64,000 nt of DNA, from assembly GCA_934274515.1 (NCBI GenBank), contig CAKQTC010000005.1, forward strand, positions 77,193-141,192. Reading direction: 5' to 3'. Position numbers and translations under genes: made by a program. The notes beneath the pieces are model-generated. The model searched no databases, was not told where the DNA came from, and saw nothing but the letters and a program-made list of their open reading frames with translations. Origin of the DNA: an uncultured Clostridia bacterium (GTDB lineage Bacteria > Bacillota > Clostridia > Christensenellales > DTU072). Of this stretch, positions 1,601-60,408 are shown in pieces (the stretch's first letter is position 1; every line of letters begins with the position of its first letter).

Positions 1601-1629
1601 TTGAAAAAAAATTGATTTCGTGTTACAAT
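1601..1629 (+). promoter_or_regulatory. candidate sigma-A type promoter upstream of the sigma-1 operon
   Basis: TTGAAA (1601-1606), a 17-nt spacer ending in TGT (extended -10), then TACAAT (1624-1629). Confidence 0.45.
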
Positions 1630-1651
1630 TTTCTCGAAAAAAATTTTTTTC

Positions 1652-1686
1652 GCAACAAAACGGCGACGTGCGCCGTTTAATAAGCG
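1652..1686 (+). promoter_or_regulatory. ECF-type promoter motif 1, copy A (GCAAC-N17-CGTTTAATAAGCG)
   Basis: GCAAC at 1652-1656 and CGTTTAA at 1674-1680, 17-nt spacing. 31 of 35 positions match copy B at 3586-3620. Fits the AAC-N16/17-CGT pattern of Bacillus ECF promoters. Lies 23 nt upstream of the sigma gene ATG. Confidence 0.55.
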
Positions 1687-1708
1687 GAAGAACGAATGAG
1701 ATGACGGT

Positions 1709-2218
1709 ATGAACGACAAGCAACTGGCGCGGCTACTGCAAGGCGTTGCCGAAGGCGACGGGAATTCTCTCGGCACGCTCTACGAAAAGACGAAGAGGGG
1801 CGTGTTTGCTTTCGTGTATCCTTATTTTAATTCTTTCGCCGACGCGGAAGACTGCGTCGAGGACGTTTTTCTTAAAATAACGAAATACGCCTACACGTTT
1901 AAGCCTACGGGAAGCGCGCGCGGATGGATATTGCAAATAGCAAAAAATACCGCTCTCGACCAAACGGAAAAGCGCAAAAGAACGGTTTATACCGATAAAA
2001 TCCCCGAACGGAGCGAACCTGAGAGAGATTTTACGGTTTTTGAAACGCTTAACACCGCCCTTGCCGAAGACGAACGTTACGTCGTGACGGCGCACGTCTT
2101 ATGGGGGTACAAACATAAAGAAATAGCCGAGTTGCTCGGTTGTCCCGTCGGTACGGTGACTTCCAAATATAAACGCGCGATAGCAAAACTGCAAATAGCG
2201 TTAAAGGAGAAAGAATGA
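1709..2218 (+). CDS. ECF-type (group IV) sigma-70 family RNA polymerase sigma factor, module 1
   Basis: 169 aa. Region 2 (DAEDCVEDVFLKITKY...ARGWILQIAKNTALD) and region 4 HTH (YKHKEIAELLGCPVGTVTSKYKRAIAKLQ) only. Stop overlaps the next start (ATGA at 2215-2218). Confidence 0.9.
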   Translation: MNDKQLARLLQGVAEGDGNSLGTLYEKTKRGVFAFVYPYFNSFADAEDCVEDVFLKITKYAYTFKPTGSARGWILQIAKNTALDQTEKRKRTVYTDKIPERSEPERDFTVFETLNTALAEDERYVVTAHVLWGYKHKEIAELLGCPVGTVTSKYKRAIAKLQIALKEKE

Positions 2219-3576
2219 AATCGTGGAAAAAAAGACTTTTTGACGAACTCGGCGAGATGACGCCGAAAGCGGACGAACGGTTTGCGACAAACGGTTCTCC
2301 TTCGCCGAAAAAAAGTTTCTCTCTCAATAAAAAACGTTTTGCGGCTGCGGTTGCGTCCCTTTCCGTCATCGCCGTAATAGCCGTCGTGCTTTGCGTGACG
2401 CTTATTTCGCCGAGCGGTTCCGGCGCTATTGCCGATAAATCGATTTTTCTTACCGTAGAAATAAACCCCGAAGCGGTTTTCTCCGTGAATAAAGACGGTC
2501 TTGTGGACGCCGTAATCGCGCTTAACGGCGACGCCGACGTCGTTCTCAATTCAAAAAATTCGCCCGTTCTTATAGGCAAACCCGTTTCCGACGCGTTAAA
2601 TTCTTTTCTTGAAGAAACCACTCGTTTAGGGTTTATCGACCCTTACGAGTTGTCCGCCATACGCGTTTCGGCAAGCGAGGACAAATCGCATTCCCTGCCT
2701 GCCATCACCGCGTCGGTAGAAAACTATTTTCGATTGAACGGCTCGAAAACTCTCGTTGCCGACAAGGTTATATCCCGTGACGAACTGTCGAAAAAATGCG
2801 GTTTGCCCGACGGTTCGGACTTAGCCGCCGGAATAAAAAGTCTCTCGCCGTCTTATGCCACGCGAGCGGCAGCCTCTCTCGATGAAAACGCACTCGAAAC
2901 TCTTTACAAAAACGAGTTCGTTCACGGACAAATTAAAACGATTTTATCCGAAAGCATATCTTCTCTTCCCGATAAACTCGCGAAAATCTCGGGTCTTTTA
3001 GACGATATAAAAAGAGGTAACGACAACATACGCGACCACCGCGACAATCCGCTTATTTTTGTCAAAGATTTTTGGTCGGTGAAAAATTCCGGTTACGAAT
3101 TAACAGGCGAGTTTGCCTCTCTCGTAAAAGAAACGGACGATAAATTAACCGAATATACACGTCTTACGGGCAAAAAAATAAATTCTTATTCCGAATTCGT
3201 GATTGCAAGCGAAACGTTTTCCGCCTTTTACGCAACGGTTCCCGTAGACCTTATTAAAAGGCTGTCCGTTTTTATGTCGGACGCGGACTTCGATTATTAC
3301 GTTGACAAATTGCTTGACCTGCTCGACAAGGCGGGAGATAAAACGGGGAAAATTATCGGAGAACTTCTGTCCGTGGACAAACTCGATTTCGATAAATTTT
3401 CTTCTTGCGTTTCAACGGTTTACGAACAAGCGAGAGAAACTCGGTTAATCGCGTTCGGCGAAAAGTTTTCCTTGGACAGGGCGGAAATAAGCGGCGAAGA
3501 ATACGGCTCGTTTATCAAAAAAGTCGTCGCCGAATACGGCTCGTTGGACGCATATTACGAATTTTTGAAAAAATAA
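2215..3576 (+). CDS. single-pass membrane protein, candidate anti-sigma factor of module 1
   Basis: 453 aa with a 4-nt overlap onto the sigma gene. About 40 aa cytoplasmic N-terminus, one TM (AAAVASLSVIAVIAVVLCVTLI), then a large outside domain starting SIFLTVEINPEAVFSVNKDGLVDAVIALNGDADVVL, reminiscent of RsgI-type anti-sigma middle domains. No HxxxCxxC zinc motif. The role is inferred from position and topology. Confidence 0.65.
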   Translation: MKSWKKRLFDELGEMTPKADERFATNGSPSPKKSFSLNKKRFAAAVASLSVIAVIAVVLCVTLISPSGSGAIADKSIFLTVEINPEAVFSVNKDGLVDAVIALNGDADVVLNSKNSPVLIGKPVSDALNSFLEETTRLGFIDPYELSAIRVSASEDKSHSLPAITASVENYFRLNGSKTLVADKVISRDELSKKCGLPDGSDLAAGIKSLSPSYATRAAASLDENALETLYKNEFVHGQIKTILSESISSLPDKLAKISGLLDDIKRGNDNIRDHRDNPLIFVKDFWSVKNSGYELTGEFASLVKETDDKLTEYTRLTGKKINSYSEFVIASETFSAFYATVPVDLIKRLSVFMSDADFDYYVDKLLDLLDKAGDKTGKIIGELLSVDKLDFDKFSSCVSTVYEQARETRLIAFGEKFSLDRAEISGEEYGSFIKKVVAEYGSLDAYYEFLKK

Positions 3577-3585
3577 TTTTTCTTT

Positions 3586-3620
3586 GCAACAAAACGCCGC
3601 GTTGCGCCGTTTAATAAGCG
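3586..3620 (+). promoter_or_regulatory. ECF-type promoter motif 1, copy B
   Basis: GCAAC at 3586-3590 and CGTTTAA at 3608-3614, with the same 17-nt spacing as copy A. Sits in the 73-nt gap between the anti-sigma stop and the lipoprotein ATG. Confidence 0.55.
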
Positions 3621-3649
3621 AAAAATCCATTACAAGGAGATTATTGAAA

Positions 3650-5182
3650 ATGAAAAGGAAACACTTAACGATTATCGTTGCGAGCGCGCTGCTCGCCTGT
3701 TTACTGCTCGTCGGGTTTGCCGGTTGTTCGGACAAGTCCGCGCGTAAATCCGATTCTTTCGTCCGTCTTGACGTCAACCCGTCGATAGAGTTGGTTGTGG
3801 ACGCAAACAATAAAATCGTATCCGTATACGGCGCGAACACCGACGGAACGGTTCTTTTGTACGGCGAAAAAGCAAATCTCGTCGGAAAAGATTTCGACGA
3901 AGTAATCGGAAAACTCACCGATATGGCGGTTAAACTCGGCTATTTGGACGAAAACAACAAAGTAGTTCAATACACCGTTTCTTCCCCCGACGGAGAAAAA
4001 GCGGAAAAAGCACTCTCCGCGTCCATTGACGCGAAAGTCACCGCTACCGCGAAAAGTCTCGGTCTTACCGTCAGCACCGATGCGTCGGGCGCGTACTCCC
4101 TTCTCCGTAGATTTAACGAGTTCAAACAAACTCACCCGGACAACAAAGCCGTACAAAAAATGAGCGTGGCGGAGTTCCGTCTTGCGTTAAGCGCGGCGGA
4201 AACCGGCGAAATCACTTTGGAAGCGGCGGTTGAACTCAACGATGAAGAACTTGTAAAAATCATTAAAAAAGCAAGCGAAGACCTTAAAGAATTCGCTACA
4301 AACGAGTATCAAGCGGCGGTTGCCATTGCCGAAAAAACCTACGAAGCGGCTGTGAGTGCGGCTCTTGACGGAATATACGCGACGTATTACTCCTCGCACT
4401 TTACATCGCACCCCTCGACTTGGTATTACGGATACGTTTACCAAATGTACGCGACTGCGGCGCACGGAACGAAAGCCCTCGAAGGAATGTTTATGCTCAA
4501 AGAAAAAATCTCCGCGATTACGCTCGGCGACGACGCGGTTAAGGCAGTACTTACCGCTCTCGGATTGACCGAAAAAGACGTGGACCTTATCAAAGACGCG
4601 GACGGCAACGTAACTCTCGAAAGCGTTTATGCGTACGCCGACAAGGTATTCAAAAACACAAAACCCGGAGCGGAGTTGGAACAACTTAAACTCAAACTCG
4701 ACGCTGCGCTTAAGAGTGCGGAAACTTATTTCGGAGAAGAAAAGGCGCGTATCTTAAAAGAATACGAACCTCAAATCACCGCGGTATACAACGCGGCAGT
4801 CGCCACCGCGAATGCGGTAAAAGCGTTAATCAATAACCCTACCGCCGCGCTTATCCCCGACAACGTAAAAGCGATAATCAACGAAATGATTGCCGCTTCG
4901 GAAGAACTTAAAAATACTTTGACGAAAGAAAACGTCTCCGCGCAAGACGTGAAAGCGCTTTCCGAAAAATACGCAAAGAAAGCGAACGAAGTACTCGAAC
5001 TTATTAAAAACGACTTAACCGACAGCGAAAAAGCGGAAGTCGAGCGCATAAGAGCGAAAGCGGAAGAAGGACTTGCCAAAGTAAAACAAACGTACGACGA
5101 CGCTATGGCAAAAGCGGAACAATTCGCTCGCGACACCATAGAAAAACTCAGAAAAGAACGTCTTATCGATAACGCTAAGTAA
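3650..5182 (+). CDS. lipoprotein paralogous to the ectodomain of the 2215-3576 protein, with a long helical C-terminal part
   Basis: I prefer ATG 3650 (AAGGAG 12 nt upstream) over the track start 3584. N-terminus MKRKHLTIIVASALLACLLLVGFAGC is a lipobox signal peptide. FVRLDVNPSIELVVDANNKIVSVYGANTDGTVLLYG...KLGYLDENN aligns with the anti-sigma candidate's IFLTVEINPEAVFSVNKDGLVDAVIALNGDADVVL...RLGFIDP. The C-terminal half is rich in A/E/K. Confidence 0.8.
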   Translation: MKRKHLTIIVASALLACLLLVGFAGCSDKSARKSDSFVRLDVNPSIELVVDANNKIVSVYGANTDGTVLLYGEKANLVGKDFDEVIGKLTDMAVKLGYLDENNKVVQYTVSSPDGEKAEKALSASIDAKVTATAKSLGLTVSTDASGAYSLLRRFNEFKQTHPDNKAVQKMSVAEFRLALSAAETGEITLEAAVELNDEELVKIIKKASEDLKEFATNEYQAAVAIAEKTYEAAVSAALDGIYATYYSSHFTSHPSTWYYGYVYQMYATAAHGTKALEGMFMLKEKISAITLGDDAVKAVLTALGLTEKDVDLIKDADGNVTLESVYAYADKVFKNTKPGAELEQLKLKLDAALKSAETYFGEEKARILKEYEPQITAVYNAAVATANAVKALINNPTAALIPDNVKAIINEMIAASEELKNTLTKENVSAQDVKALSEKYAKKANEVLELIKNDLTDSEKAEVERIRAKAEEGLAKVKQTYDDAMAKAEQFARDTIEKLRKERLIDNAK

Positions 5183-5204
5183 AAGTCTTTCTCAAAAATA
5201 CACG

Positions 5205-5233
5205 GACCGCCGTTTTTTCGGCGGTCTTTTTTT
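5205..5233 (+). terminator. intrinsic terminator after the module 1 lipoprotein gene
   Basis: GACCGCCG-TTTTTT-CGGCGGTC stem-loop followed by T7. Confidence 0.8.
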
Positions 5234-5296
5234 GCGGTAAAAACGCTTTTTCGTTGCGTGCGGCACGGCTGCTTTATCTCGGTCAAATTTAAGGTA

Positions 5297-5325
5297 TTGA
5301 CACTTTTCTCGTGTAATATTATAAT
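5297..5325 (+). promoter_or_regulatory. consensus sigma-A type promoter for the 5384 gene
   Basis: TTGACA (5297-5302), a 17-nt spacer, then TATAAT (5320-5325). Confidence 0.6.
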
Positions 5326-5383
5326 AGTTAGTATAATAATAATATAAAATTATGCAAATTTCGGCATAAAAAGAAGGTTAATT

Positions 5384-6427
5384 ATGAAACAGACGGAAAT
5401 TACAAAAATTCAAAAATTGCTCGATAAAGACGGCAATATCGCGCAGGCGGGTTTTGCGAAAAAACTGCTTTGGGAATACAATCGCGGAAACATAACCGCG
5501 AGAAAATCGCTTATTAAGGAATGGGATTACTATTATATCGGCAACGAAAAATGCGCGATATGTCTTACCATTGCGGATATGGGCTATATCGGCGCGCTTA
5601 GCGCAACGGTTATGGACTTCGAAGGAATATGGCAGATTACCAAAAGTTCGGTTATTCTCTTCCCGATGGGCAAAATTAAACTTCCGCGCACTTCCGTCGC
5701 AGGCGACAGCAAATATAAAAACGGCGAAGTCGAAATGACGTTCCTTAACGACGGTACAAAACGCAGAATTTACGGCAAATATCCGAAATTCGGCAAAAAA
5801 GGCGAACCGCTCGTATTCGACGTTACCCTTACCGACGTCCCGGAAGAAAGTATGGTCATCGCCACCCCGTTCGCAAAAAACGGCAGGTTTTATTATAACC
5901 AAAAAATAAACTGTATGACTGCAAACGGTTCTTTCTCTCTCGGTGAAAAAGAATATGTTTTAAGCAAAGATAACGGCGCAATGGCGACGCTCGACTGGGG
6001 TCGCGGCGTATGGACGTACGACAACACTTGGTACTGGGGAAGTTTGCAAACCGCCCTCGAAGACGGCTCGACTTTCGGGTTTAACATCGGTTACGGATTC
6101 GGAAACAACACCGAAGCCACCGAAAATATGCTTTTCTACAACGGGAAAAGCCACAAACTCGACGAAGTGACGTTTAACATTCCGAAGAAACCCGACGGCA
6201 GCGACGACTTTATGTCGCCTTGGACTTTCACTTCCAACGACGGACGGTTCTTTATGGACTTCACTCCGATAATCGACCGTTACGCACCCGTGGATATTAA
6301 GATTTTCTGTATGATTCCGCACCAAGTATTCGGTAAATTTACGGGAAAAGCCGTTTTAGACGACGGAACCGTTATCGAAATCAAAGACAAACTCGGATTT
6401 GCGGAAAAAGTACATAATAAATGGTAA
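5384..6427 (+). CDS. conserved hypothetical protein, possibly DUF2804 family
   Basis: 347-aa ORF with AGAAGG upstream. Soluble, with no signal peptide. Motifs KEWDYYYI and LDWGRGVWTYDNTWYWGS match my recollection of DUF2804. The family call is tentative. Confidence 0.75.
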   Translation: MKQTEITKIQKLLDKDGNIAQAGFAKKLLWEYNRGNITARKSLIKEWDYYYIGNEKCAICLTIADMGYIGALSATVMDFEGIWQITKSSVILFPMGKIKLPRTSVAGDSKYKNGEVEMTFLNDGTKRRIYGKYPKFGKKGEPLVFDVTLTDVPEESMVIATPFAKNGRFYYNQKINCMTANGSFSLGEKEYVLSKDNGAMATLDWGRGVWTYDNTWYWGSLQTALEDGSTFGFNIGYGFGNNTEATENMLFYNGKSHKLDEVTFNIPKKPDGSDDFMSPWTFTSNDGRFFMDFTPIIDRYAPVDIKIFCMIPHQVFGKFTGKAVLDDGTVIEIKDKLGFAEKVHNKW

Positions 6428-6611: not shown

Positions 6612-6638
6612 ACAGCCTTCCCGTTGCGGGAAGGCTGT
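6612..6638. terminator. 11-bp GC-rich hairpin between convergent genes; weak terminator candidate
   Basis: ACAGCCTTCCC-GTTGC-GGGAAGGCTGT. Only TT follows on the plus strand and no T-run follows on the minus strand. Confidence 0.3.
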
Positions 6639-37910: not shown

Positions 37911-37939
37911 ATTATATATACGAATACGCTTTCTGTCAA
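37911..37939 (-). promoter_or_regulatory. consensus sigma-A type promoter for giant gene 2 (and probably gene 1)
   Basis: On the minus strand, TTGACA (37939-37934), a 17-nt spacer, then TATAAT (37916-37911), about 55 nt upstream of ATG 37853. Confidence 0.65.
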
Positions 37940-38098
37940 GACGCGCAGGAAAGATAAATATTATTTTAATTATACGAAAAACAACGCCCGCGTTTTGCGC
38001 GCGATTAGCGCAATTCGCACGCGTTTTACGCACGCGTTCGTTCTCTCTCCCCCCGAATTAGTTGCTTTTTGAGCCGCAGTATGCTAGACTTAGGCAAT

Positions 38099-43295: not shown

Positions 43296-44269
43296 TCGTT
43301 TTTGCTCCCTTCTTCGCTTTTTTCGCTATGCGTTACGCTCATAAAGAATTCTTCGAGAGTGGTTTCTTTGCGAGTAATGCCAAGCACGCTTACTCCCCTT
43401 AAAATGAGGTCTTTTGCTATGTCGTTGACGGGTTTGTCGGTAGCAAATTCGATTTTGCCGTTTCCGAGTATCGTGCTGTCAAGACACATATCGTCTTTTA
43501 GCACGTCGCGCGCCTTGATTACGTCTTCCGTGGTAAGAATTATTTTCGTTTCTCCGCCGAGCGCGGCGATGTCAGAAGCGGTAAACACGCCCGTAACCCG
43601 ACCTTTGTCTATGATAACGTACTTGTCGCACATCGCCTGTATTTCGCTCAACAAGTGACTGCTCACAAGCACAGCCATTCCGTATTCTTTGCTTATTTTA
43701 CGCAAAATATCCCTTACTTCCATTATTCCGTTCGGGTCAAGTCCGTTCGTCGGCTCGTCAAGAACGAGCAAGTCCGGTCGCGCCAACAACGCCTGCGCTA
43801 TGCCGACGCGTTGCTTCATTCCGAGAGAATACTTCCTTATTTGGTCGTTCCGCCTGTCGTACACACCGACCATTTTAAGCAAATCCTCAGAGCGTTGTTT
43901 TACCGCGGCTTTCCTTTCCGCACCTTTACCGAACTCTTCGCAATGCGATATCGCCGCAAAATATTCGAGGTTTTTCATCGCGCTCCACTCGCGGTACAAA
44001 TCGGGGTTTTCTATAATGCACCCGACTTTTTCAAGTGCTTTTACGCGGTTTTTCCGTATGTCGTAACCGTTTATCCTGACCGAACCCGAAGTAGGCTCGG
44101 CAAGCCCGGTAACGATTTTGAGCGTAGTGCTTTTGCCTGCGCCGTTCTGTCCGATAAACCCGACGACTTCTCCCTTGTCCACGGTAAAACTAACGTCTTC
44201 CGCGGCGGTCACAGTTCGCCCTTTGCTTTTGTAAACTTTCGTTATGCCGTCTATTTCCAAAACAGCCAT
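43292..44269 (-). CDS. ABC transporter ATP-binding protein (ABC-2 exporter type)
   Basis: Walker A GQNGAGKST, signature YSLGMKQRVGIA, Walker B LLVLDEPTNGLD. GGAGG upstream. C-terminal extension of about 90 aa. Confidence 0.9.
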   Translation of the reverse strand: MAVLEIDGITKVYKSKGRTVTAAEDVSFTVDKGEVVGFIGQNGAGKSTTLKIVTGLAEPTSGSVRINGYDIRKNRVKALEKVGCIIENPDLYREWSAMKNLEYFAAISHCEEFGKGAERKAAVKQRSEDLLKMVGVYDRRNDQIRKYSLGMKQRVGIAQALLARPDLLVLDEPTNGLDPNGIMEVRDILRKISKEYGMAVLVSSHLLSEIQAMCDKYVIIDKGRVTGVFTASDIAALGGETKIILTTEDVIKARDVLKDDMCLDSTILGNGKIEFATDKPVNDIAKDLILRGVSVLGITRKETTLEEFFMSVTHSEKSEEGSKNE

Positions 44270-53300: not shown

Positions 53301-56300
53301 TCCTCGGTTGCCAACGAAACGGTTTGTTTGAGTTTTACCGTGTAATACGCTCCGTCGTTGTCTTGACAAGTCGTAACGAAACGGTTGTTTAGCGATTTTA
53401 GCGAATCCGACGCCGTATAAACGGTATAATAAATTCGATAATCTATGTCTTCTTTTTCCGTTACTACTTCCACGGAATTCGTATATTGTTTCGTTCTTCC
53501 GCGCGCTTCGGGGCTTGTTTCCGTGCCGTAGGGATAAGAAAGCGTTTCTTCGTCAAACCCCGTCGGTATGGTTTCTTTCTCCGCCGTCGCGTCGGACGCG
53601 TCGGAAATAACGAAAGCGGTTACTTTCCTGCCCGACATCATCATATCTCGGCAGGAATATTTTATTTTTAACGCGCTGCCGTACTCGAAAGATATAGCCG
53701 TAGCGTACTCTTCGCTGCCGTCAACGGCTATTTGCGTTTCGTCTTTCGACGTCGCCGTAAACGTTTTTACGGAAAATCCCGCTTTTATTTTGCAGTCGTC
53801 GGTAAGGAACAGCGTAATCGTGTCGTCGTCGTTTACCCTGTATTTGAACGTGTATCTACCCGAATACGCGGTTGCCGATAAAATCTTGCCTACTTCCGCG
53901 CCCGTTACGGTAAACTCCGCGTAATCGTTGATGTTCGACCCGGCGGTTATGCGCCATCTCGTGAAGTCGTAACCCGTGGGGGAATGTCTTTTTATCGTGT
54001 ATTCCGAAAAATACAACCGTTTACTCACCGTGTACTCTCCGTCGTCGTAGTTCGTTTCCGAACCCCCTTCGACTATTTTTTTAACTTCCGCGGTGTTGAT
54101 TGCCGTCCCCGCGTTCCCGTCGAAACGGAAAGTGTCCTTTTCCAACGTTACGCTGTATTTTCTCAGGTTAAGCGTGCCGTACGCCCATAAATCGCCGTCG
54201 GGCATGGTTGCGCCTGAATACGGCTTGTCGTCAAACATTCTCGACCAGCCGCCGAAATCGTACCGTGCCTTAGTCGCGTTGATAAGCGCGTCCGCCACCG
54301 AATCGTTATAAACAAGACCCGTTATCGTAGCGTCGCGCAGATACTCGTCCTGCCCGACCAAAAGTTTGTTAAGTTTATAATATTTTTCTCCGTCTACGAG
54401 TTTGTACTCGTTTTTGTCGATTTCCGCACACGCGCTGAGCGGATTTTCCTCGTCGTTCTGCTCGTAGTCCGTTCTGACATAGTATGTAATCGTAAACTCG
54501 TTTTGTTTGGACGAAAACGAATAAACGACATTGTCCGCGTCGGATACGAGGGCAAACGTCGCTTCCCCTTTGTACCTGTCGTCAGAGTTTTCGACGTATG
54601 AATACCCTTCTTCCGCGTCAAGAGTTTTGCCGTTTGCCTGTACGCCGTCTATCGAGCGACCCCTTTCGAGCGACACCGAAAAGACGAACTTCGCTCCGTA
54701 AGGAACGATATAACTGTCTGCGCCGTATTTGTATTTTTCGGGCGAATTGCCGTTTATCGTCTTTATTTCGGGCTTTATTCCTTCTTTAAGGGAAATCGTG
54801 ACGTTATGGCTCTTTATCGTACAGACCGAACGTACTACGACGTCTTTTTTCGGCATACTGAACTCGCCGCTTACGTCCAACCCCTCGCCGTCGGCGACCC
54901 AGTCGCTTACCGTCCAGTGCTTCGCTTCGAATTTAAGCGCAAGGTCGTACGCCGCGTTCTCCCCGCCTTTAATCGTATATTTATCGTCAAGGGTAACCTT
55001 TTCGCCGTACTTTTTCGACACAACTCTTACCGCATAACCTTCTTTGTACGTACCGGGCATAAAAAACGTTTCGTCGTTCGTTACGTCCGTTCCGTCGTAA
55101 ATCATTTTGAAAATATAAGTTATGGTATATCTCCTGTTTTGGAAAACGCAGGTAAATTTTTCGTTGCCTTTAACCGTGTAAAAGAAAGAATACGTTATTC
55201 TTTCTCCTTTTACGGGTTCTTCTTTGCTCTCGATTCTGTCGCTCGCATCTTTTTCTTCCGTGTCTTTCCACTGCAAAAATTCGTACCCTTCAAACGCAAC
55301 GACGTAGAATTCGATAATGCTGCCGTAGGCATAGGAACCGCTCTTTACTCCGTTCGAACCGCCTATTCTCGCTTCGCCGTACTCGGACATAACGCCCGAT
55401 AAATCGACAAGGTATCTTCTCGCGGAAAACGAACCGGTAACTTGCACGTTTCTGTTCGGCATATTCGACGGCGTCTTTCCCTCTCCGACGCTTTGCCATT
55501 GTCCGAATTCGTAATGCTCCATCTCCGGCACTTTCGCAAGCATAATCCCGTCGTTGTAGTTATAATGCTCTTCTTTGACGAAAATTCCGTTTTCGCGCTT
55601 CTCGAACCCTGCGCCGATAATCGCTTTTTCCATATCTTCGTCAAGAAAATATTTGCCGTTTATGTTACAGTTAAGCGTATAGGTAAGTAAATAATCCTTG
55701 TCTTCGAACCTGCCGCGTATGAGCGTGTTCGACCCGCCCGCAATCTTTACGCCGAGTTTTTCGAGTTCGGCAAGCGTAAACGAACCGCTTTCGGGTATGC
55801 TCGTAGCCGATACGTCGGCAGCCGCAACGGTAACGACGGTTTTTTCTTTTTCGGAATAATAAACCGCTTTCTTTTCTCCGCCGTCTTCTTCGTAAACGAG
55901 ACAGAACGAGCCGTCGCCGGTACGCGCAAGCACCGCCGTTTTTCCTCCGTAAGCAATCGTCCAATCAAGAAAATTCTTACCCGTAGGCACCGCGCCGATT
56001 AACACGATGTCTTCGTTTTTTCCGTACGAACCGCTGCCTCCGCCGCTTACGACGGTAACTTTATACGCTTCGCGGTACTTCGCCGAAAACGTGTACGTCT
56101 TATTCGCTTTTACAAATTCCTGATTTAAGTCAAAATAGAAACTCGATACGGTCGCTATGCTCTGTTTTATCTCTTTTTCCGTCCCGTTTTCGATTTCCGT
56201 ATAAGATAATTCCCAGCCGAAACACGCCATATCCGTTATTTCGTCCGCTTTTATTTCCACCGAACCGTCTTCGACGTAGGCTTTGAATTTGCGCTGTTCT

Positions 56301-57097
56301 TCGCCGGTGCCGCCGTTTTTGATGACGACGTAAACGTACGGGTTCTCTTCGTAAACGGCGACGAAAAGCGTGCTTGTTCCGTCATACGGTTCGAGCGAAA
56401 CGCCGTTTTTGTCGGTAACCTTTTTGCCGTTTGCTTCCCAACAAACGAATTTATGCCTGTCTTTGACGGGAACGGGCAAAGAATAGTCGTATCCGCTAAG
56501 CAACGCGCCGTCGTACGACGCCGTCGAGCCGAACGCCGTTACCGTTACGTTCTGATTGTCCGCTTTCCCTCCGTTGTAAGACAAAGTAATCTTCTTATCG
56601 CTCGCGTAAACGGCACGCACCACCGCGTCTTCCGTTACGACGTATTCCGCGTTCCGCTCGTACGACAACGGTTTGTCGTTTGCCACCCAACAAACGAATT
56701 TCATATCCGCGACCAAATCGGCGGAAAGAGCGATTTTCGTCCCGTATGCGTACGCTCTCGACCGGTTATTCTCTCCGCTTATTATCTGCACGGTTCTCAC
56801 CGCGTCGGAAAACACCCCTCGAATAGTGACGTCGGTCGTAACTTTGTAGACCAAACTCTTTTCCGTCGAATAACGCTCCCCGTTTACTTCCCAGTACTCG
56901 AACTCCTGTCCTTGCGCAACGTTCGGGGTAAGGGTAATCGTCGCTCCGACGTCGTACTCCTTGGTTTCGGTAAACGAACCGTTGACAATCGTAACAGTCT
57001 TCTTCCCCGATAAATCCTGCTCGGAACAAGCCGTAATCCCGAAAGCGAAAATTATCGCCGCGATAATTACGAAAACGACCGTCAATTTGCGTTTCAT
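44393..57097 (-). CDS. giant surface lipoprotein 3 (4234 aa) with Listeria-Bacteroides repeats, BspA-type LRRs, beta-helix-like repeats and Cys/His-rich modules
   Basis: Start moved to ATG 57097 (GGAGG 7 nt upstream). MKRKLTVVFVIIAAIIFAFGITAC is a lipobox signal peptide. Flg_new-type repeats with F.GW/F..W motifs (nt ~53100-57000). LRR_5-type repeats such as TLPNTIKTIGASAFEGC and IKSSAFEGCKNF (nt ~51355-52990). G/T/A/V-rich beta repeats (nt ~48000-51350). CxxC/His modules (nt ~44800-47950). Confidence 0.9.
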   Translation of the reverse strand: MKRKLTVVFVIIAAIIFAFGITACSEQDLSGKKTVTIVNGSFTETKEYDVGATITLTPNVAQGQEFEYWEVNGERYSTEKSLVYKVTTDVTIRGVFSDAVRTVQIISGENNRSRAYAYGTKIALSADLVADMKFVCWVANDKPLSYERNAEYVVTEDAVVRAVYASDKKITLSYNGGKADNQNVTVTAFGSTASYDGALLSGYDYSLPVPVKDRHKFVCWEANGKKVTDKNGVSLEPYDGTSTLFVAVYEENPYVYVVIKNGGTGEEQRKFKAYVEDGSVEIKADEITDMACFGWELSYTEIENGTEKEIKQSIATVSSFYFDLNQEFVKANKTYTFSAKYREAYKVTVVSGGGSGSYGKNEDIVLIGAVPTGKNFLDWTIAYGGKTAVLARTGDGSFCLVYEEDGGEKKAVYYSEKEKTVVTVAAADVSATSIPESGSFTLAELEKLGVKIAGGSNTLIRGRFEDKDYLLTYTLNCNINGKYFLDEDMEKAIIGAGFEKRENGIFVKEEHYNYNDGIMLAKVPEMEHYEFGQWQSVGEGKTPSNMPNRNVQVTGSFSARRYLVDLSGVMSEYGEARIGGSNGVKSGSYAYGSIIEFYVVAFEGYEFLQWKDTEEKDASDRIESKEEPVKGERITYSFFYTVKGNEKFTCVFQNRRYTITYIFKMIYDGTDVTNDETFFMPGTYKEGYAVRVVSKKYGEKVTLDDKYTIKGGENAAYDLALKFEAKHWTVSDWVADGEGLDVSGEFSMPKKDVVVRSVCTIKSHNVTISLKEGIKPEIKTINGNSPEKYKYGADSYIVPYGAKFVFSVSLERGRSIDGVQANGKTLDAEEGYSYVENSDDRYKGEATFALVSDADNVVYSFSSKQNEFTITYYVRTDYEQNDEENPLSACAEIDKNEYKLVDGEKYYKLNKLLVGQDEYLRDATITGLVYNDSVADALINATKARYDFGGWSRMFDDKPYSGATMPDGDLWAYGTLNLRKYSVTLEKDTFRFDGNAGTAINTAEVKKIVEGGSETNYDDGEYTVSKRLYFSEYTIKRHSPTGYDFTRWRITAGSNINDYAEFTVTGAEVGKILSATAYSGRYTFKYRVNDDDTITLFLTDDCKIKAGFSVKTFTATSKDETQIAVDGSEEYATAISFEYGSALKIKYSCRDMMMSGRKVTAFVISDASDATAEKETIPTGFDEETLSYPYGTETSPEARGRTKQYTNSVEVVTEKEDIDYRIYYTVYTASDSLKSLNNRFVTTCQDNDGAYYTVKLKQTVSLATEERVKQIAAAEGLEYEGAMFSGWYDKNALLSTDAEGEGFKENGANPDGTWKYTHEKKSNKAPSHVYLSCYLIRLVKTYEGEGKLNGTIKDTPNYSQYFRMHYNEITVPEKGSDGKEVVTIANEAFKGMRSLVKVTLPNTIKTIGASAFEGCISLAETGITDAVVEIGGRAYSGCSAISEVYLGKNVNNIGAKAFEKTSNLTNIFYNSVQTVNHSIGINVFDDAGENTSGITLTIGSAVTVVPKGLFGGSNEKSAKYLFSVVFEQGKEKSVTIGEGAFAYSGMRTLEPNGRLKSIKSSAFEGCKNFTEFDFEGSGLTAVDASSFANSKLKTVILSEEITSIGVAAFSNCMDLESVYYRGENGITAIEERAFAAGGGSATSAISALRRFTSITERDKETPADEIKLPNTVTLGKQAFYGAVGVKTVYLGGKKAYIGVSVFEGARGIKNITYDVENGGDVSSTDSSPFMNMQSIGDVAITIGANVKRVPARMFYNVGSVKKIAVPSNVASIGAYAFAHMNALSEIDFEINGDDYEMSSTANPFYGSGAESGMTVRFGNNVTKIKENAFSKTERLTRFVIAADAVKPLVIGASAFAETGVTTVNIPVRQSLSVGKYAFRGASINSVAINEDVSEISVDAYAFSSIKGKINTIRAFGKSMNGVWFVAENEDGAVNAVKTGTGIKATINGAMKTNGSVTVEKEDELVVATGAKLNIAAETTIKGKFTPETGSNVEKKDENVVFRAIAFTKDDFGEKNAYAEYTHRVIAADMDFTENLVVNGEEFTINEGAKVTFSGDSYELSVNTFKVVTETGSSCTMSGKTLNAKGRLVGRIRVTENAAVTVDGKKFFNDGVDLSATDSGLRVTSGTTELYSNGSRFTYTVVTGELRINKDYTQDSSYGIGVKKDATLAVDFTATLSTYTAESGSFLAIEDDAVLRLKEYGGAASGVKWTVSAAVSALGNNVKSYFGSLEKGFNDSANEKRTIVLERSATYDEFNVQTPKADTTLDFNGYTLSIKNGGMTLFGNLRIQNADFKATENGGAIIRGQADTGYLFVESGTIKAKNNAIDAKLHVTVESGAEIISEEGVALMCDKATINGAVRGKTYGLLMESSAIGAKAEIGGVVESVGGTAVKIVGRALEVKLLGTGSITGKTALYISETGEPSDSDAALVAEAGSVIAGTDAGAILVGAGKYLLKGEVTATAERGVNAENNGLYKGAIVIVEKDKGQAGNNVSAELTATATAKNENGDAILYVGYDREEVLNDGTARKTLELSTATIIGRKAALVQTFDVKSGASDDAEQYSLVGDEIVLYKNAAEFGAGDGVYEYNGSRTRIFQNCSVLSLEVATGTLSTVRYVTEHTDVAEALNFSNYVRVIGGGLTYGGDVEKEKTLVVAQDLVWSNGNVSGTLGIVGGAVTASGNVSASGRIIGAKSALEGKELIVGGAFSVTKTAEGNYGTIDLTSGMTINESASANFFRRLALSEKGVIENYGTISIGNDVYDQDEADIEYSSLSGKVEVFGGKIILYEDAYISELTLTDATVEIRKNGNATTVNPKETEITTRIVSVYGNDVALGGKFTINEKLLLGANTEFTEKVVINGSVALSDERQPKTLTLSGAGNEISIEGTTRYDADINGDTKFFTKKSNAMFVYGKIKVRAKIEVKINNAEASKYGQLVITGDDVREGRIVLQNGADVHAEEFYLMNGGGAEHYFGTLTVHKVSFEMGTNLAVSGVFIDNRGWMFVGSADELEGNSFIGYDNGTNTGKVKSEDIKTVKYEYEIFGKTSGFVVSNCTAASYKTHSATCGEEGGDRCIYEYVGTLEDGTKIEIRHERKNVTPATGLHTFIPKADGSGHYCSVCGWEEQHTYEKKNLSRLGNACFVDDANENALGVYGESCDYCAYKTSKGIAIADASTTIKQFNAMNYLHRVEILDNGERKRVFVKVNFAFDKDEPLIKYAERKLVYLKKDDLTVDKTKKYYAIPIDVDSEPDTNYILIEHTDENHYYICENGKHVCIGCGEEAQGEQANHEYDSTKETFIDRFAGTDYYAIEYVCQNCGDSNGILNVGQHDGDTQIASMQNEINAQYNVTIDATSGTVGDNYLFMFVFGGIEYFGVAATRVGSEHKIIIGVKHNHNAYVYDGTSGKYVCATDGCKAAYSPEHACEERGTLNATSFGQDGLPGYTFGYVDSGDKVLTHACARCTREDAPSVEFTVVGDMRTAEDLNEALKGYAFFIDGKSYFARANVGDVTTPLTELRERTERVLNGDETLKVAYDLIYVVLVDAETGKTLSVSTTGSYTAKINHICNSYQPYNNGTSIIHRCSSCGKIADIGAHEADETKPYVVANYFGRTVLGRPCKHCDTVVPVTFDLGQQQIEYESYGTGEQTGYRAKNNLVTAMRANVSAINAVLEKMVGYDGTIISNATVTPRFANDIGRAWRDDAMFRAYNGMVTMDDDGMFYDLSEGYDGTLYNVFYVSFATTEGRSEIMAEIFVKHVCSEFISGTTEETATEHYCAVEQCRNRRCSKLYESELVGYNGENVYVKYDDCNPFGMIAGKFGNIENLTKHTTKTPSADTIGKIKTLSTQFATFMSHHTIPTDGTEYAGTVSLSTLNAFSNLYQKAIDVYKGAVATFDTEGGDYNKSVVVGANYPYAITRKADTVPETVDLQAAIANLYGFSDKEEFMNYAKDLVAEYNRHRANIAAGSATTNEALDNGCFYTDNGSFVFPIAVRNETGADVLTYLILSSDGLASVWINDVTVALKAINYSEEYHCSTNSVTNELLCKDTLFVWGEVRKFESEFELKHEPQTQVIGGRKENLYRYAFVKGVFGENYEEVDLTVVERSCLICGDGFENVATVTGKNATLETALNKYIETYATNSEVNSATGKKTYYLRLDGKEYRIGGIVKPWPLQDGEDELMSEEDMRFYRPTGKTTDDGTAEGAQWNNEAVPLVDAKYYAWEVKAFERNNESITKTFRILVLWTNPEK

Positions 57098-57170
57098 AGT
57101 AAAACCTCCGTGTCGGGGCGTTCCCCGCATACGCGCGCGTCTTGCGCTCGCGAAAATAGTCTAATTTAAT

Positions 57171-57198
57171 ATTATAATATAAACCTTAAAAAAGTCAA
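57171..57198 (-). promoter_or_regulatory. near-consensus sigma-A type promoter for giant gene 3
   Basis: On the minus strand, TTGACT (57198-57193), a 16-nt spacer, then TATAAT (57176-57171), about 70 nt upstream of ATG 57097. Confidence 0.55.
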
Positions 57199-57281
57199 TA
57201 GCCCCGCCCCATCCTTTCACGCGTCGAAAATCGTCGTTATTCCGCTTAAATTTCATCGATTTTTCCTCCGCTTGCGAATTC

Positions 57282-57310
57282 TTGACTTCCTCTTACTTTT
57301 TTTATATGAT
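57282..57310 (+). promoter_or_regulatory. candidate sigma-A type promoter upstream of the sigma-2 operon
   Basis: TTGACT (57282-57287), a 17-nt spacer, then TATGAT (57305-57310). Confidence 0.45.
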
Positions 57311-57368
57311 GTAGGCGTAGGTAAACGGTATTGCTTTATTATATCCGAAAAAATAAACTAAAAATTGT

Positions 57369-57400
57369 CCAACAATTCGACCTTTTACTATTGTTAATAT
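57369..57400 (+). promoter_or_regulatory. ECF-type promoter motif 2, copy A (CCAACAATTCG-N-TTGTTA)
   Basis: CCAAC at 57369-57373 and TTGTTA at 57391-57396, 17-nt spacing. The same 12-mer TCCAACAATTCG and the same spacing recur at 59286-59314. Confidence 0.5.
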
Positions 57401-57411
57401 TTTGATGAATC

Positions 57412-57939
57412 ATGATTCACGACAAACTTGAAAAAAAAGTCATAAAATTGAAAAACGGCGACACCTCTGCGTTCGACTATATTTACGAACGCACCAACCG
57501 TTCTGTCTATTTTACGATTTTTCGCATAGTTAAAGACAAGATGTCTGCCGAAGACGTGCTGCAAGACACCTATATGCGCGCGATTTCCGCCATTGAGCAA
57601 TATAGAGAAGGAACCAACTTTATCGGTTGGTTATGTTCTATCGGAAAATCTCTTGCCTTAAACCGCCTTAAAAAATACAGGCGCGAAATCTCTACCGATT
57701 TTGAAGCGCAAGCCTACAAATACGGTACAGAAGAACCCGAACTCCCTTATATTTTCGATATAGCGTCGAAAATTCTATCGGAGGACGAATACAAAATCGT
57801 TATGCTCTGTCACGTTTCGGGGTATAAACGTCGCGAAGTTTCGGATATGCTCGGTCTTCCCGTCGGAACGGTTACTTGGAAAAACAACGAAGCATTGAAA
57901 AAACTCAAATCCTATCTTGAAAAGGAGGACCGCTTATGA
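57412..57939 (+). CDS. ECF-type (group IV) sigma-70 family RNA polymerase sigma factor, module 2
   Basis: 175 aa. Region 2 (AEDVLQDTYMRAISAIEQY...FIGWLCSIGKSLALNRL) and region 4 (YKRREVSDMLGLPVGTVTWKNNEALKKLK). ATGA overlap with the next gene. Confidence 0.9.
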   Translation: MIHDKLEKKVIKLKNGDTSAFDYIYERTNRSVYFTIFRIVKDKMSAEDVLQDTYMRAISAIEQYREGTNFIGWLCSIGKSLALNRLKKYRREISTDFEAQAYKYGTEEPELPYIFDIASKILSEDEYKIVMLCHVSGYKRREVSDMLGLPVGTVTWKNNEALKKLKSYLEKEDRL

Positions 57940-59156
57940 AAAACGTAAAAAAACTCTTGGCGCGATACAAGTCGGAAATTTTACCCGACGAAAAAATAAA
58001 AGATAACATAAAACGCGAACTCGGTTTTGACGACAAGGAACGTTCCCTTGTTTATGCAAACGGCGGAGAACGGGTAGCGGACTCGCACCGCCGCAATAAA
58101 ATCATTACGGTTTGCGCCTCCGCTCTGATCGTTATACTGGTTCTCGGAATACTTATTCCCGTTTTGCTAAACAAACATCGAGATACGGAGTTTCCCTCTA
58201 TCGTAAATAAGTTTACTCAAATAACTGACGCCGATTCTTTCTACGCCTACGGCGCGGTTTCCGTCGGAACCATACTCTCTTCTTCGGTTTCGCAATCCGT
58301 TTCTCCGTCCGCACGGTCGGTTTGCAAAATCGTAAGTGCGTCCGTTCCCGAAAAAACAAACTCGGCAAAACTTTCCGCCGCCGCCGACAACGACCCCGAA
58401 CAACTGGCAAACGTCAATCGCTATATGCCCTTGGTCGAAAGTTTGTTGAGCGAAAAGAAAATCGAGGCGTCCTCTATCTCCGGCGAATACGGGTATAACT
58501 ACGGTATGACGGCAACCTACACGGATTTACGCGGAATTTCCGTATCTTACCGATTATTCTACGACAAGTTCCCGGTCAAAACGGATTCGGATGACGATAA
58601 ATCGAAAAAAAACTATTCTATATCGGGTATTCTCCTAATCGGAACCGCCGAATATCCGGCGGAAGGATTATACAAAACGGAAACGGATGACGACGAAACG
58701 GAAAGCGACCTTTACTTTAAGGCTTTTACGAATGCCGACAAAACTTCTTATATCGAAGCGCGCCATAAATACGAAACCGAAAAAGAAAAGGACAAAACCG
58801 AAATCGAACAGGAATTCGTTTACTCCGTCTACAAAAACAATAAATTAATCGAACGAACGGTAGTCGAATACGAATCGGAAAAAGACGAACTCGAATTAAA
58901 AATGTCTATTTCGAAAGACGGAAAAACGGATACCCTTAAATTCAAAGGAAAAATTGAAAACGGCAAAAATATCCTTATTGCCGAAGGCATTATAAACGGT
59001 CAATCTCTACGTTTTCGCGTCCTTATGCAACAGGACGGCTATCGTTACGTCTTCGACGACGGCTCGTTCTCGGATTTAGATCGCGACGACATCGACGACG
59101 ATGACGACGATAGTTCCGACGATGACGGCTCCGACGACGATGACGACGACGATTGA
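57936..59156 (+). CDS. single-pass membrane protein, candidate anti-sigma factor of module 2, with a poly-Asp C-terminus
   Basis: 406 aa, translationally coupled to the sigma gene. About 55 aa cytoplasmic N-terminus, one TM (IITVCASALIVILVLGILIPVLL), an outside domain, and a tail DRDDIDDDDDDSSDDDGSDDDDDDD. No zinc anti-sigma motif. The role is inferred. Confidence 0.65.
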   Translation: MKNVKKLLARYKSEILPDEKIKDNIKRELGFDDKERSLVYANGGERVADSHRRNKIITVCASALIVILVLGILIPVLLNKHRDTEFPSIVNKFTQITDADSFYAYGAVSVGTILSSSVSQSVSPSARSVCKIVSASVPEKTNSAKLSAAADNDPEQLANVNRYMPLVESLLSEKKIEASSISGEYGYNYGMTATYTDLRGISVSYRLFYDKFPVKTDSDDDKSKKNYSISGILLIGTAEYPAEGLYKTETDDDETESDLYFKAFTNADKTSYIEARHKYETEKEKDKTEIEQEFVYSVYKNNKLIERTVVEYESEKDELELKMSISKDGKTDTLKFKGKIENGKNILIAEGIINGQSLRFRVLMQQDGYRYVFDDGSFSDLDRDDIDDDDDDSSDDDGSDDDDDDD

Positions 59157-59175
59157 CAAACCGTATTTTAATCAT

Positions 59176-59202
59176 AAAAACCGCCGAAAAACGGCGGTTT
59201 TT
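59176..59202 (+). terminator. intrinsic terminator after the sigma-2 operon
   Basis: AAAAACCGCCG-AAAAA-CGGCGGTTTTT, with further Ts downstream. Confidence 0.7.
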
Positions 59203-59286
59203 CTCGCTTTTTTATGAACGCTACTCTCTGCGTTCCGTCCGTTTTTTCTTCTCGGATAAACTTTTTGGAATTTTTTTATTTTTTTT

Positions 59287-59318
59287 CCAACAATTCGGCG
59301 TTGCCGCTTTGTTATATA
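59287..59318 (+). promoter_or_regulatory. ECF-type promoter motif 2, copy B
   Basis: CCAAC at 59287-59291 and TTGTTA at 59309-59314, 17-nt spacing. About 60 nt upstream of the lipoprotein ATG 59377. Confidence 0.5.
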
Positions 59319-59376
59319 GATGAATGCGGAAAAATTCCGGAGTTTCCGTCTTAAAAAACAAAAAGGAGTTTTCGTT

Positions 59377-60408
59377 ATGAAAAAATTATTTATGATTATA
59401 TCACTATCGTTGGTGCTTGTGCTCGCATTCGGGCTTGTCGCTTGCAAAGTCACTCTTCCCGACGGTCCCGACGACAAAAACGACAAAGGAAAATTTACAA
59501 ATCTGACAACCGCCGAATCCGTATTCGGGTTCAGCGCCGCTTCGGCAGGAATGATTGTTTCTTCTATGTCCGACGGAGCCGCCGTCAATCTTTCTTCGGA
59601 AAATCTCTCGACGACGAGCAATCCGTCGGCAACGACTCTTTCCGTCGCGATATCCGACAACGCTTCGCTCGGAAAAACATCCGACGTATCCGATGTTCCC
59701 GACGCCGAAAAAACTCCCGATTTCGACGGTATCGAAACGACGGAACTCGATAGATACATGGCTTTGGTGGAAAGTTTGCTGAGCGACGGCGGCTTCAACA
59801 TCGATTCTCAGCCTTCGGAAAGAGAAGGTTTTTCCGAAAAAACGGTCGTTTCTTACAAAGATATGAAAGGTAATTCTTTACAATACGTAATGTACTACAA
59901 TCAAATTCTTAAAGGAACCGAAACGGATGACGACGGCGAAATCGAAGAAAATTATTCCATCGAGGGCGTTATGGTCATCGACGGAAAAGATTATGAAATT
60001 CGCGGAGAAAAAACCAACGAAACCGAACTTGACGAAAGCGAAACCGAAACCGAATTCGTGGTTAAACTCAGCGATACGCGCTATATCCGCGTCGAACAAA
60101 GCGTCGAAACGGAAAACGGCGAATCCGAGCAAGAATACAGTTATTCCGTATATGACAACGGTCGCCTTATCGAGCGCAGTACGTTCTCTTACGAAACCGA
60201 GCAGAACGAAACCGAATTAAAAATGACTTCTTTCAAAGACGGAAAAACACAAGTTTTCTATTTTGAAAAAGAACTCAAAAAAGGCGAGGAAGTCATTGAA
60301 ATACATATCGGCAACGGAAAAAGCGGCAAAGGGTACATAGTGCGCATAGAAACCGACGAAAACGGCAACAATCGCTACGTATACGAACCTACGAAATTCG
60401 ACGACTGA
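59377..60408 (+). CDS. lipoprotein, collinear paralog of the ectodomain of the 57936-59156 protein
   Basis: Start moved to ATG 59377 (AAAGGAG upstream). MKKLFMIISLSLVLVLAFGLVAC is a lipobox signal peptide. Matching blocks, this protein first: ESVFGFSAASAGMIVSS/DSFYAYGAVSVGTILSS, DRYMALVESLLS/NRYMPLVESLLS, ENYSIEGVMVIDG/KNYSISGILLIGT, EQEYSYSVYDNGRLIERSTFSYETEQNETELKMTSFKDGKT/EQEFVYSVYKNNKLIERTVVEYESEKDELELKMSISKDGKT. Confidence 0.85.
   Translation: MKKLFMIISLSLVLVLAFGLVACKVTLPDGPDDKNDKGKFTNLTTAESVFGFSAASAGMIVSSMSDGAAVNLSSENLSTTSNPSATTLSVAISDNASLGKTSDVSDVPDAEKTPDFDGIETTELDRYMALVESLLSDGGFNIDSQPSEREGFSEKTVVSYKDMKGNSLQYVMYYNQILKGTETDDDGEIEENYSIEGVMVIDGKDYEIRGEKTNETELDESETETEFVVKLSDTRYIRVEQSVETENGESEQEYSYSVYDNGRLIERSTFSYETEQNETELKMTSFKDGKTQVFYFEKELKKGEEVIEIHIGNGKSGKGYIVRIETDENGNNRYVYEPTKFDD

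Follow-up and report, generated by a model that had tools for sequence, protein, structure and literature searches.

Two ECF sigma factor cassettes next to giant lipoprotein genes in an uncultivated gut Clostridia: self-contained systems most likely placed there by an accident of gene order

Background

The locus considered here is a 64,000-bp stretch of contig CAKQTC010000005.1 (GenBank assembly GCA_934274515.1), hereafter called the window, from an uncultivated bacterium of the class Clostridia from the human gut; the same genes were found, identical, on Hadza and other gut-metagenome contigs. Three giant lipoprotein genes (G1, G2 and G3) lie on its minus strand and two gene modules on its plus strand, each composed of an extracytoplasmic function (ECF) sigma factor (sigma-1 or sigma-2), an anti-sigma candidate (as1 or as2) and a lipoprotein (lp1 or lp2). 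An earlier note on this DNA had proposed that the modules monitor the condition of the surface layer made by the giant proteins; an analogy for such a role is offered by the SigI/RsgI systems of Clostridium thermocellum, which turn on genes for large surface assemblies. Comparing the window with loci retrieved from relatives (designated by L-numbers), we conclude that the modules are most likely two independent and self-contained ECF cassettes, whose siting beside the giants reflects a species-specific accident of gene order and not a functional coupling.

In RsgI, an Asn-Pro bond is the site of self-cleavage, and this cleavage is needed for signalling through intramembrane proteolysis (PMC10328401, PMC10556640). 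Anti-sigma factors bearing the corresponding SEAL domain have been proposed to act as mechanotransducers that need an extracellular tether (PMC10556640).

Results and discussion

A window two-thirds filled by three genes

The giant genes occupy 42,756 of the 64,000 bp (66.8%), so that anything else in the window adjoins a giant. Only three non-giant stretches exist, two of which house the modules (Table 1): the left one contains module 1, a DUF2804 gene and mscL, and the right one module 2, a MatE gene and an M18 peptidase gene. The middle stretch holds ecfA-ecfA-ecfT-truA, then, on the minus strand, an ABC ATPase, an ABC-2 permease and a TMEM164-like gene located 3' of G3. The coordinates agree with the earlier description of two plus-strand modules bracketing minus-strand giants, but such bracketing does not go beyond chance in a window of this composition. 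The distances given there also hold: the end of lp1 lies 2552 nt from the G1 stop codon (which begins at 7735), for the ~2.5 kb announced, and sigma-2 and G3 share a 314-nt intergenic region (57098-57411), given that G3 starts at the ATG at 57097, with GGAGG 8 nt 5' of it. The mechanical start of this open reading frame (ORF), at 57130, has no ribosome-binding site. A Gram-positive lipobox (G+LPPv2 pattern) is present in all five lipoproteins (G1, G2, G3, lp1 and lp2; 5/5).

Anatomy of the two modules

Sigma-1 and sigma-2, which are 28% identical and comprise regions 2 and 4 only, both score above the 42.9-bit cut-off of the TIGR02937 model (75.7 and 69.4 bits, respectively), and the best 25 NCBIfam matches of sigma-1 are all ECF or sigma-70-family models, with SigI absent among them. 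In both modules, the start of the as gene overlaps the stop of the sigma gene (ATGA), and the third gene encodes a lipoprotein paralogous to the ectodomain of the preceding protein. Position and topology designate as1 and as2 as putative anti-sigma factors; neither matched an anti-sigma-domain model in Pfam or NCBIfam.

As1 comprises a short conserved N-terminal helix, a transmembrane (TM) helix at ~46-64, a SEAL/RsgI-PD domain at 77-186 and an all-helical C-terminal domain. RsgI_M is its sole Pfam match at E<=0.01 (E 3.1e-9); RsgI_N was not detected in Pfam at this threshold, and the cytoplasmic part is ~40 aa long. Its AlphaFold2 (AF2) model, with a predicted local distance difference test (pLDDT) score of 81.6, displays the TM helix, the alpha/beta domain (77-186) and the all-helical domain. 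In Foldseek, the alpha/beta domain matched the SEAL domain of Bacillus subtilis RsgI (8t9n; prob 1.0, E 8.7e-5, TM-score 0.69-0.77) and RsgI2-PD of C. thermocellum (8hdj; prob 1.0). The alignment of 13 homologues keeps E-I-N-P (residues 82-85) invariant, and the AF2 model places its Asn-Pro at the turn between strands beta1 and beta2 (E77-82, E87-91).

The same juxtamembrane domain recurs in lp1, where a SEAL domain with D-V-N-P stands right behind the lipid anchor and is followed by a long helical region (RsgI_M, E 7e-19). The SEAL domains of lp1 and as1 share 22% identity over 107 aa, with D-V-N-P at the same place as E-I-N-P. The true start of lp1 is the ATG at 3650 and not 3584, the 5' extension housing a promoter motif described below. 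On its far side, module 1 appears insulated from the giants, because its closing terminator, DUF2804 with its own promoter, mscL and the G1 terminator all intervene, DUF2804 and mscL occupying the 2552 nt between lp1 and G1. On its near side, sigma-1 is divergent from the gene of an uncharacterized 520-aa protein (ATG 1159, minus strand, sigma-A-like promoter 1261..1232), next to which a further uncharacterized protein of 444 aa is encoded in L004. Module 2 is therefore not alone in diverging from a large gene.

In module 2, as2 has a conserved N-terminal helix (MKNVKK...KSEILPD), a TM helix at ~56-74 and a beta-rich ectodomain ending in a poly-Asp tail, and it matched nothing in Pfam or NCBIfam. 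In its AF2 model, whose confidence is low (pLDDT 56), residues 177-373 form a 14-strand antiparallel beta meander, for which Foldseek returned nothing significant in the PDB (best E 0.025, TM-score <=0.2). Lp2, starting at the ATG at 59377 and not at 59320 since the 5' extension again houses a promoter motif, is a paralogue of the entire as2 ectodomain (32% identity over 350 aa, E 7e-43). Module 2 shares the architecture of module 1, with an ectodomain of unmatched fold. The extracellular tail of as2 (residues 381-406, 59078-59156; DRDDIDDDDDDSSDDDGSDDDDDDD) is made of Asp and Glu; its acidic character is kept, with varying length, in all orthologues, while lp2 has no such tail. Binding of cations or of the cell wall is conceivable as a possibility.

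Two copies of a module-specific motif, and none before the giants

Alignment of the regions 5' of orthologous sigma and lipoprotein genes revealed one motif per module, M1 (GCAACAAA(A)-N-(C/T)GTTTAAT) in module 1 and M2 (CCAACAA-N15-TTGTTATATA) in module 2, each found once before the sigma gene and once before the lipoprotein gene. Position weight matrices (PWMs) built from orthologous sites (11 for M1, 16 for M2) gave 31-38 bits to the four module sites and at most 16 bits to all other positions of the window on either strand, a ceiling likewise found for the maxima in shuffled sequences. The window contains each motif two times and no more, where 0.15-0.2 occurrences would be expected, and a strict-pattern scan of 468 kb of related loci matched only positions upstream of sigma and lipoprotein genes.

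Both positions are kept in nearly all relatives having that sequence. M2 copy 1 is present in 11/11 non-conspecific loci; M1 copy 1 precedes the sigma-1 orthologues of L018, L021, L023, L024, L026 and L029-33, and M1 copy 2 is kept before the lp1 orthologues of all relatives. In L019/L020, L025 and L028, the copy before the sigma gene escaped the strict pattern.

ECF promoters typically combine an AAC core at -35 with a GTT (GT-rich) core at -10. Because the motif blocks are conserved and asymmetric, always take the orientation of the downstream gene, stand at a promoter-like distance from its start codon and hold these AAC and GTT cores, we infer from their sequence that M1 and M2 are promoters read by the cognate sigma factor. 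They could instead be operators bound by a repressor or an activator, which would leave the conclusion on the giants unchanged, and an imperfect inverted repeat (AACAA-N15-TTGTT) whose half-sites are about two helical turns apart would suit such a protein. The palindrome is not kept, however: the 3' block of M1 (GTTTAAT) is invariant while the bases that symmetry would require vary, for example in L029-33. Moreover, the blocks are asymmetric, preceded by CC or GC and extended by ATATA or AATA. They follow the orientation of their own gene and stand as far from its start codon as a promoter would, their geometry fits 6-17-6 with the AAC/GTT layout given above, and each sigma factor has its own variant. 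We thus consider operators unlikely, and cognate promoters the more likely reading.

PWM and pattern scans found no M1 or M2 site 5' of any giant gene, in line with the earlier note, which had reported no ECF motif there and had attributed near-consensus sigma-A promoters to the giants; these promoters match the consensus at 12/12 positions before G2 and 11/12 before G3. The sigma factors might nevertheless regulate the giants through over-degenerate promoters, or by read-through or antisense transcription effects within the 314-nt region, where sigma-2 and G3 diverge from promoters placed back to back ~84 nt apart and where the partly palindromic M2 (CAACAA...TTGTT) could conceivably have weak reverse activity. 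Yet no score exceeds the shuffled background 5' of the giants on the minus strand, and the sigma-A promoters of the giants are near-perfect. In addition, where lp2 is divergent from sigma-2 in relatives, it bears its own, separately oriented copy, and the motif is therefore directional. We regard regulation of the giants by these sigma factors as extremely improbable, and the only outputs visible in cis appear to be the cassettes' own genes.

Gene order in relatives separates the modules from the giants

Flanks of up to 10 kb were examined around each module locus. Relatives of module 2 came from eight other GTDB species (L010-L017), retrieved with an alignment of as2 orthologues from a collection of one genome per species, and from metagenome contigs found by exact-protein look-up (L007-L009). 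Their as2 proteins are 40-62% identical to that of the window, and the trio of sigma factor, anti-sigma candidate and lipoprotein is intact wherever the contig reaches, L010 ending just after the anti-sigma gene. None of these 11 non-conspecific loci yielded a tblastn match to G1, G2 or G3, and their ORFs outside the trio all measure at most ~1,700 aa; the place of G3 is taken by an aro operon in L007 and by a Na/Pi cotransporter in L009. That place belongs to lp2 in L014-L017, the four most distant species, where it lies upstream of sigma-2 and divergent from it, each gene with its own motif copy; despite this relocation the trio remains undivided. By gene order, the conserved partner of sigma-2 is its lipoprotein and not a giant gene.

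Module 1 is rarer (16 homologues) and was searched with a 6-sequence as1 alignment, the 13-sequence set being too diverse for back-translation. Its relatives (L018-L021, L023, L024, L026 and L028-L033) belong to at least six lineages, at 27-65% identity. They keep the trio among glycoside hydrolases, housekeeping genes and MatE/TetR genes, with no giant ORF and no homologue of G1-3 in the flanks of up to 10 kb.

The view from the giant side is the same. The representative closest to G1 (P0138, 5662 aa) is encoded on contigs of 81-189 kb from a related species (L035-L037), in the order G2-like (4292 aa), G1-like, RhuM, a small FeThRed_B-like ORF, MscL, TrkH and TrkA, DUF2804 and an amino-acid ABC transporter. 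The G2-G1-mscL-DUF2804 block is therefore syntenic with the window and the tandem of a G2-type and a G1-type gene is conserved, while other genes occupy the place of module 1: within 10 kb past G1, neither a homologue of a module protein (E<=1e-3) nor a motif was found. By tblastn, amino acid identity to the window is 57% for G2, 49% for G1, 71% for MscL and 86% for DUF2804. The giants of these contigs are thus far more diverged (49-57%) than their DUF2804 and MscL neighbours.

Divergence between strains also dissociates the two. In the conspecific strain L025, as1 is 98% identical at the amino acid level, against 79% for G1 (over 2123 residues), and DNA identity of 93-98% over module 1, DUF2804 and mscL falls abruptly to 72-86% inside G1. 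Module 1 and G1 have separate evolutionary histories. Within the same comparison, lp1 displays a local dip to 84-90% DNA identity at 3500-4500. G1 itself resembles an allele of a surface protein that diverges fast or recombines.

For G3, residues 1-1000 retrieved a single homologue (P0137, 43% identity), and a metagenome scan with the G3/P0137 alignment gave no match.

Chance adjacency or sensing of the giant layer

The earlier idea of sensing can be phrased as a lineage-specific contact of the as and lp ectodomains with the giant layer, whose integrity, ligand binding or shedding would free the ectodomain and activate the sigma factor, in module 1 through a pull on the autocleaved SEAL domain. 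Several observations would suit it: the adjacency is stable across conspecific strains (L001-L006, L025 and L034), the giants and the module proteins are anchored to the same membrane face, and SEAL anti-sigma factors are proposed mechanotransducers with a tether requirement (PMC10556640). Linkage was absent, however, from every other lineage examined, whether approached from the modules (11 loci for module 2, at least six lineages for module 1) or from the giants (L035-L037), and as1 does not co-vary with its neighbour G1. Module 1 and G1 have two terminators and two unrelated transcription units between them, and the giants are not one class of ligand, G3 being unrelated to G1 and G2. Adjacency is also to be expected with giants at 67% of the window. 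The proposal thus gains no support here, and we judge it very unlikely; relatives that never link modules to giants are what the earlier note itself had named as refuting it. By contrast, the statement of the earlier note that the link is positional only is strengthened, the adjacency being confined to this species. We favour chance adjacency because it is seen in one species only, because modules and giants have no common promoters and do not co-vary, and because the giants fill two-thirds of the window. Terminators after lp1, as2 and lp2, together with the sigma-A promoters of the giants, also set the cassettes apart.

Some points weigh against this preference. Linkage was examined locally (<=10 kb); the G1/G2 family is widespread among relatives, and many genomes may therefore contain both modules and giants. 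For G3, gene context came from its one homologue, whose 5.9-kb contig extends 218 nt upstream, short of any sigma position. The regulatory view covers what acts in cis. The cytoplasmic parts of as1 and as2 are short (~40-55 aa) and gave no match to known anti-sigma domain models; their binding to the sigma factors is putative, as is the promoter role of the motifs. Finally, a SEAL-type mechanosensor depends on an extracellular tether. The boldest form of coupling would have the cassettes recruited in this species as mechanosensors of a giant coat, with the SEAL domains of as1 and lp1 tethered to G1 or G2 and the ectodomains of as2 and lp2 to G3, so that pull, shedding or damage strips the ectodomain and frees the sigma factor; we hold this to be highly improbable.

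Proposed mechanism and comparison with known systems

As self-contained cassettes, the modules would each operate as follows. Copy 1 of the motif would drive the sigma and anti-sigma genes, resulting in positive autoregulation, with the anti-sigma factor translationally coupled to the sigma factor, and copy 2 would drive the lipoprotein gene. For module 1, the SEAL domain and its Asn-Pro site suggest an RsgI-like mechanism, in which constitutive autoproteolysis would leave the ectodomain held non-covalently until force or a ligand releases it, and site-2 (RasP/RseP-type) intramembrane cleavage would then liberate the sigma factor. This cascade is inferred by analogy with the cited work on RsgI. 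The paralogous lipoprotein, once induced, may act back on the sensor, for instance as a rival for its extracellular ligand or as a partner of that ligand. Transcription of the giants would start at sigma-A promoters of their own, jointly for the G2-G1 tandem and, for G3, probably together with the downstream ABC genes.

Like module 1, SigI/RsgI systems (RsgI of B. subtilis and the nine RsgI of C. thermocellum controlling cellulosome genes) carry a SEAL/RsgI-PD domain with Asn-Pro right after a single TM helix, and the same logic would be expected of module 1, namely autoproteolysis, signal-driven release, site-2 proteolysis, sigma release and autoregulation (PMC10328401, PMC10556640). In contrast to these systems, the partner of as1 is an ordinary ECF sigma factor (r2 and r4_2, 169 aa, TIGR02937) and not SigI. 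As1 has no detected RsgI_N, and neither an intrinsically disordered region nor a carbohydrate-binding module, its C-terminal domain being folded and helical. The SEAL domain of module 1 furthermore recurs in a second protein, the lipoprotein, which has a promoter copy to itself, and the large surface-protein genes nearby are devoid of the promoter motif. Module 1 is thus SigI/RsgI-like at its sensor end and not a member of that family.

The remaining features recall the cassettes in which an ECF sigma factor is held by a single-pass anti-sigma factor and freed by regulated intramembrane proteolysis (SigW-RsiW and SigV-RsiV of B. subtilis, RpoE-RseA-RseB of Escherichia coli). Common traits are a small two-domain sigma factor, an overlapping gene, here presumably co-transcribed, for a single-pass protein that in the modules is a putative anti-sigma factor, a promoter with AAC (-35) and GT-rich (-10) cores that would be autoregulatory here, and a neighbouring gene for an accessory extracytoplasmic protein. 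Lp1 and lp2 compare best with RseB, a protein that binds the ectodomain of RseA. Here, unlike in those cassettes, the accessory protein is lipid-anchored and a paralogue of the very ectodomain of the anti-sigma candidate, and its gene carries a copy of the predicted sigma-specific promoter beyond mere co-transcription. The cytoplasmic segments of the anti-sigma candidates are very short and match no ASD or ZAS model, and Pfam, NCBIfam and the PDB yielded no relatives of the ectodomain of module 2.

These results remove the tempting story of dedicated sigma factors watching over giant surface proteins, adjacency being uninformative in a window two-thirds filled by three genes. They define in its place a compact and recurrent cassette of uncultivated gut Clostridia, made of an ECF sigma factor, a putative anti-sigma factor, a lipoprotein paralogous to its ectodomain and a predicted sigma-specific promoter in two copies. 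Module 1 pairs the autoproteolytic SEAL domain, previously tied to SigI/RsgI mechanotransduction, with an ECF sigma factor and duplicates it on a lipid-anchored partner. If the lipoprotein is indeed a decoy or a co-sensor, it would offer a simple built-in feedback to a proteolytic and otherwise irreversible switch. The motifs M1 and M2 also provide a direct handle for regulon prediction in complete genomes.

The giant genes

G1 and G2 contain neither Pfam domains nor internal repeats, and are distant paralogues by their N-terminus only (22% identity over ~310 residues); G3 is unrelated to both, and the grouping of all three in one family was rejected. With residues 1-1200 of G1 as query, 65 representatives (50% cluster level) were found among 1.84 billion proteins. 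Almost all members of this G1/G2 family measure 3.5-6.9 kaa and align from residue 1, and G1 and G2 thus belong to a genuine family of giant lipoproteins. Their size above 4,000 aa and lack of repeats are shared with giant-gene products of uncultivated bacteria, as are the LRR_5 and InlB-B-repeat-like domains of G3 with BspA-type surface proteins (bioRxiv 10.1101/2023.11.21.568195). Unlike those proteins, G1-G3 are lipid-anchored by a lipobox and not attached by LPXTG or an S-layer, and G1 and G2 are without any Pfam domain. Nothing ties the three giants to a dedicated regulator.

G2 and G1 probably form one operon, because the 68 nt that separate them hold no T-run terminator. The ABC ATPase, ABC-2 permease and TMEM164-like genes are probably co-transcribed with G3, and these three are a more plausible functional partner for G3 than module 2. 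Long plus-strand ORFs within the giants (up to 608 aa), which match no family, are frame shadows and not genes.

Other features of the window

The features are listed in Table 1. A minus-strand ORF at 38026-38676 was disregarded as an antisense shadow of ecfA. Rfam, applied to the whole window at the gathering threshold, returned nothing, and the intergenic regions hold no riboswitch or known small RNA.

Table 1. Coordinates of the modules, motifs, giant genes and neighbouring features in the window
Feature	Coordinates	Strand	Description
sigma-A-like promoter 5' of sigma-1	1601..1629	+	TTGAAA-17-TACAAT, extended TG; consensus match only, possible basal promoter
M1 copy 1	1651-1683	+	CGCAACAAAACG-N-CCGTTTAATAA; 26 nt 5' of sigma-1 ATG; PWM 36 bits
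sigma-1	1709-2218	+	ECF (group IV) sigma factor, 169 aa; Pfam Sigma70_r2 + Sigma70_r4_2
as1	2215-3576	+	single-pass anti-sigma candidate, 453 aa
M1 copy 2	3585-3617	+	TGCAACAAAACG-N-CCGTTTAATAA; before lp1; PWM 38 bits
lp1	3650-5182	+	lipoprotein, 510 aa; lipobox VGFAGC
module 1 closing terminator	5204-5227	bidirectional	intrinsic, strong; 9-bp stem, 7 GC pairs, T-run
DUF2804 gene	5384-6427	+	own perfect sigma-A promoter at 5297-5325
mscL	between DUF2804 and G1	-	
G1 terminator	7703-7670	-	
G1	7735-24879	-	lipoprotein, 5714 aa; not a cassette member
G2	24948-37853	-	lipoprotein, 4301 aa; in tandem with G1, gap 68 nt
G2(-G1) sigma-A promoter	37939..37911	-	TTGACA-17-TATAAT, 12/12 consensus
TMEM164-like membrane protein gene	41384-42235	-	
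ABC-2 permease gene	42267-43295	-	
ABC ATPase gene	43292-44269	-	first after G3, 123 nt past its stop codon
G3	44393-57097	-	lipoprotein, 4234 aa; BspA-type LRR_5 + InlB-B-repeat-like domains
G3 sigma-A-like promoter	57198..57171	-	TTGACT-16-TATAAT, 11/12 consensus
sigma-A-like promoter facing sigma-2	57282..57310	+	TTGACT-17-TATGAT; consensus match only
M2 copy 1	57368-57401	+	TCCAACAATTC-N-TTGTTAATATT; 11 nt 5' of sigma-2 ATG; PWM 31.6 bits
sigma-2	57412-57939	+	ECF sigma factor, 175 aa; Sigma70_r2 + r4_2/r4
as2	57936-59156	+	single-pass anti-sigma candidate, 406 aa
terminator after as2	59176-59202	+	intrinsic; 11-bp stem, T-run
M2 copy 2	59286-59319	+	TCCAACAATTC-N-TTGTTATATAG; before lp2; PWM 32.4 bits
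lp2	59377-60408	+	lipoprotein, 343 aa; lipobox FGLVAC
module 2 closing terminator	60444-60468	+	intrinsic

In the strain L034 (97.8% DNA identity), compared with the window at 60477-62261, the MatE efflux gene (60728-62248) is missing and the M18 peptidase gene directly follows lp2. The right end of the window (63706-64000) runs into the 3' end of a further large minus-strand gene, which encodes 1762 aa in L001 (15771-21059), and the genome appears to be rich in very large envelope proteins.

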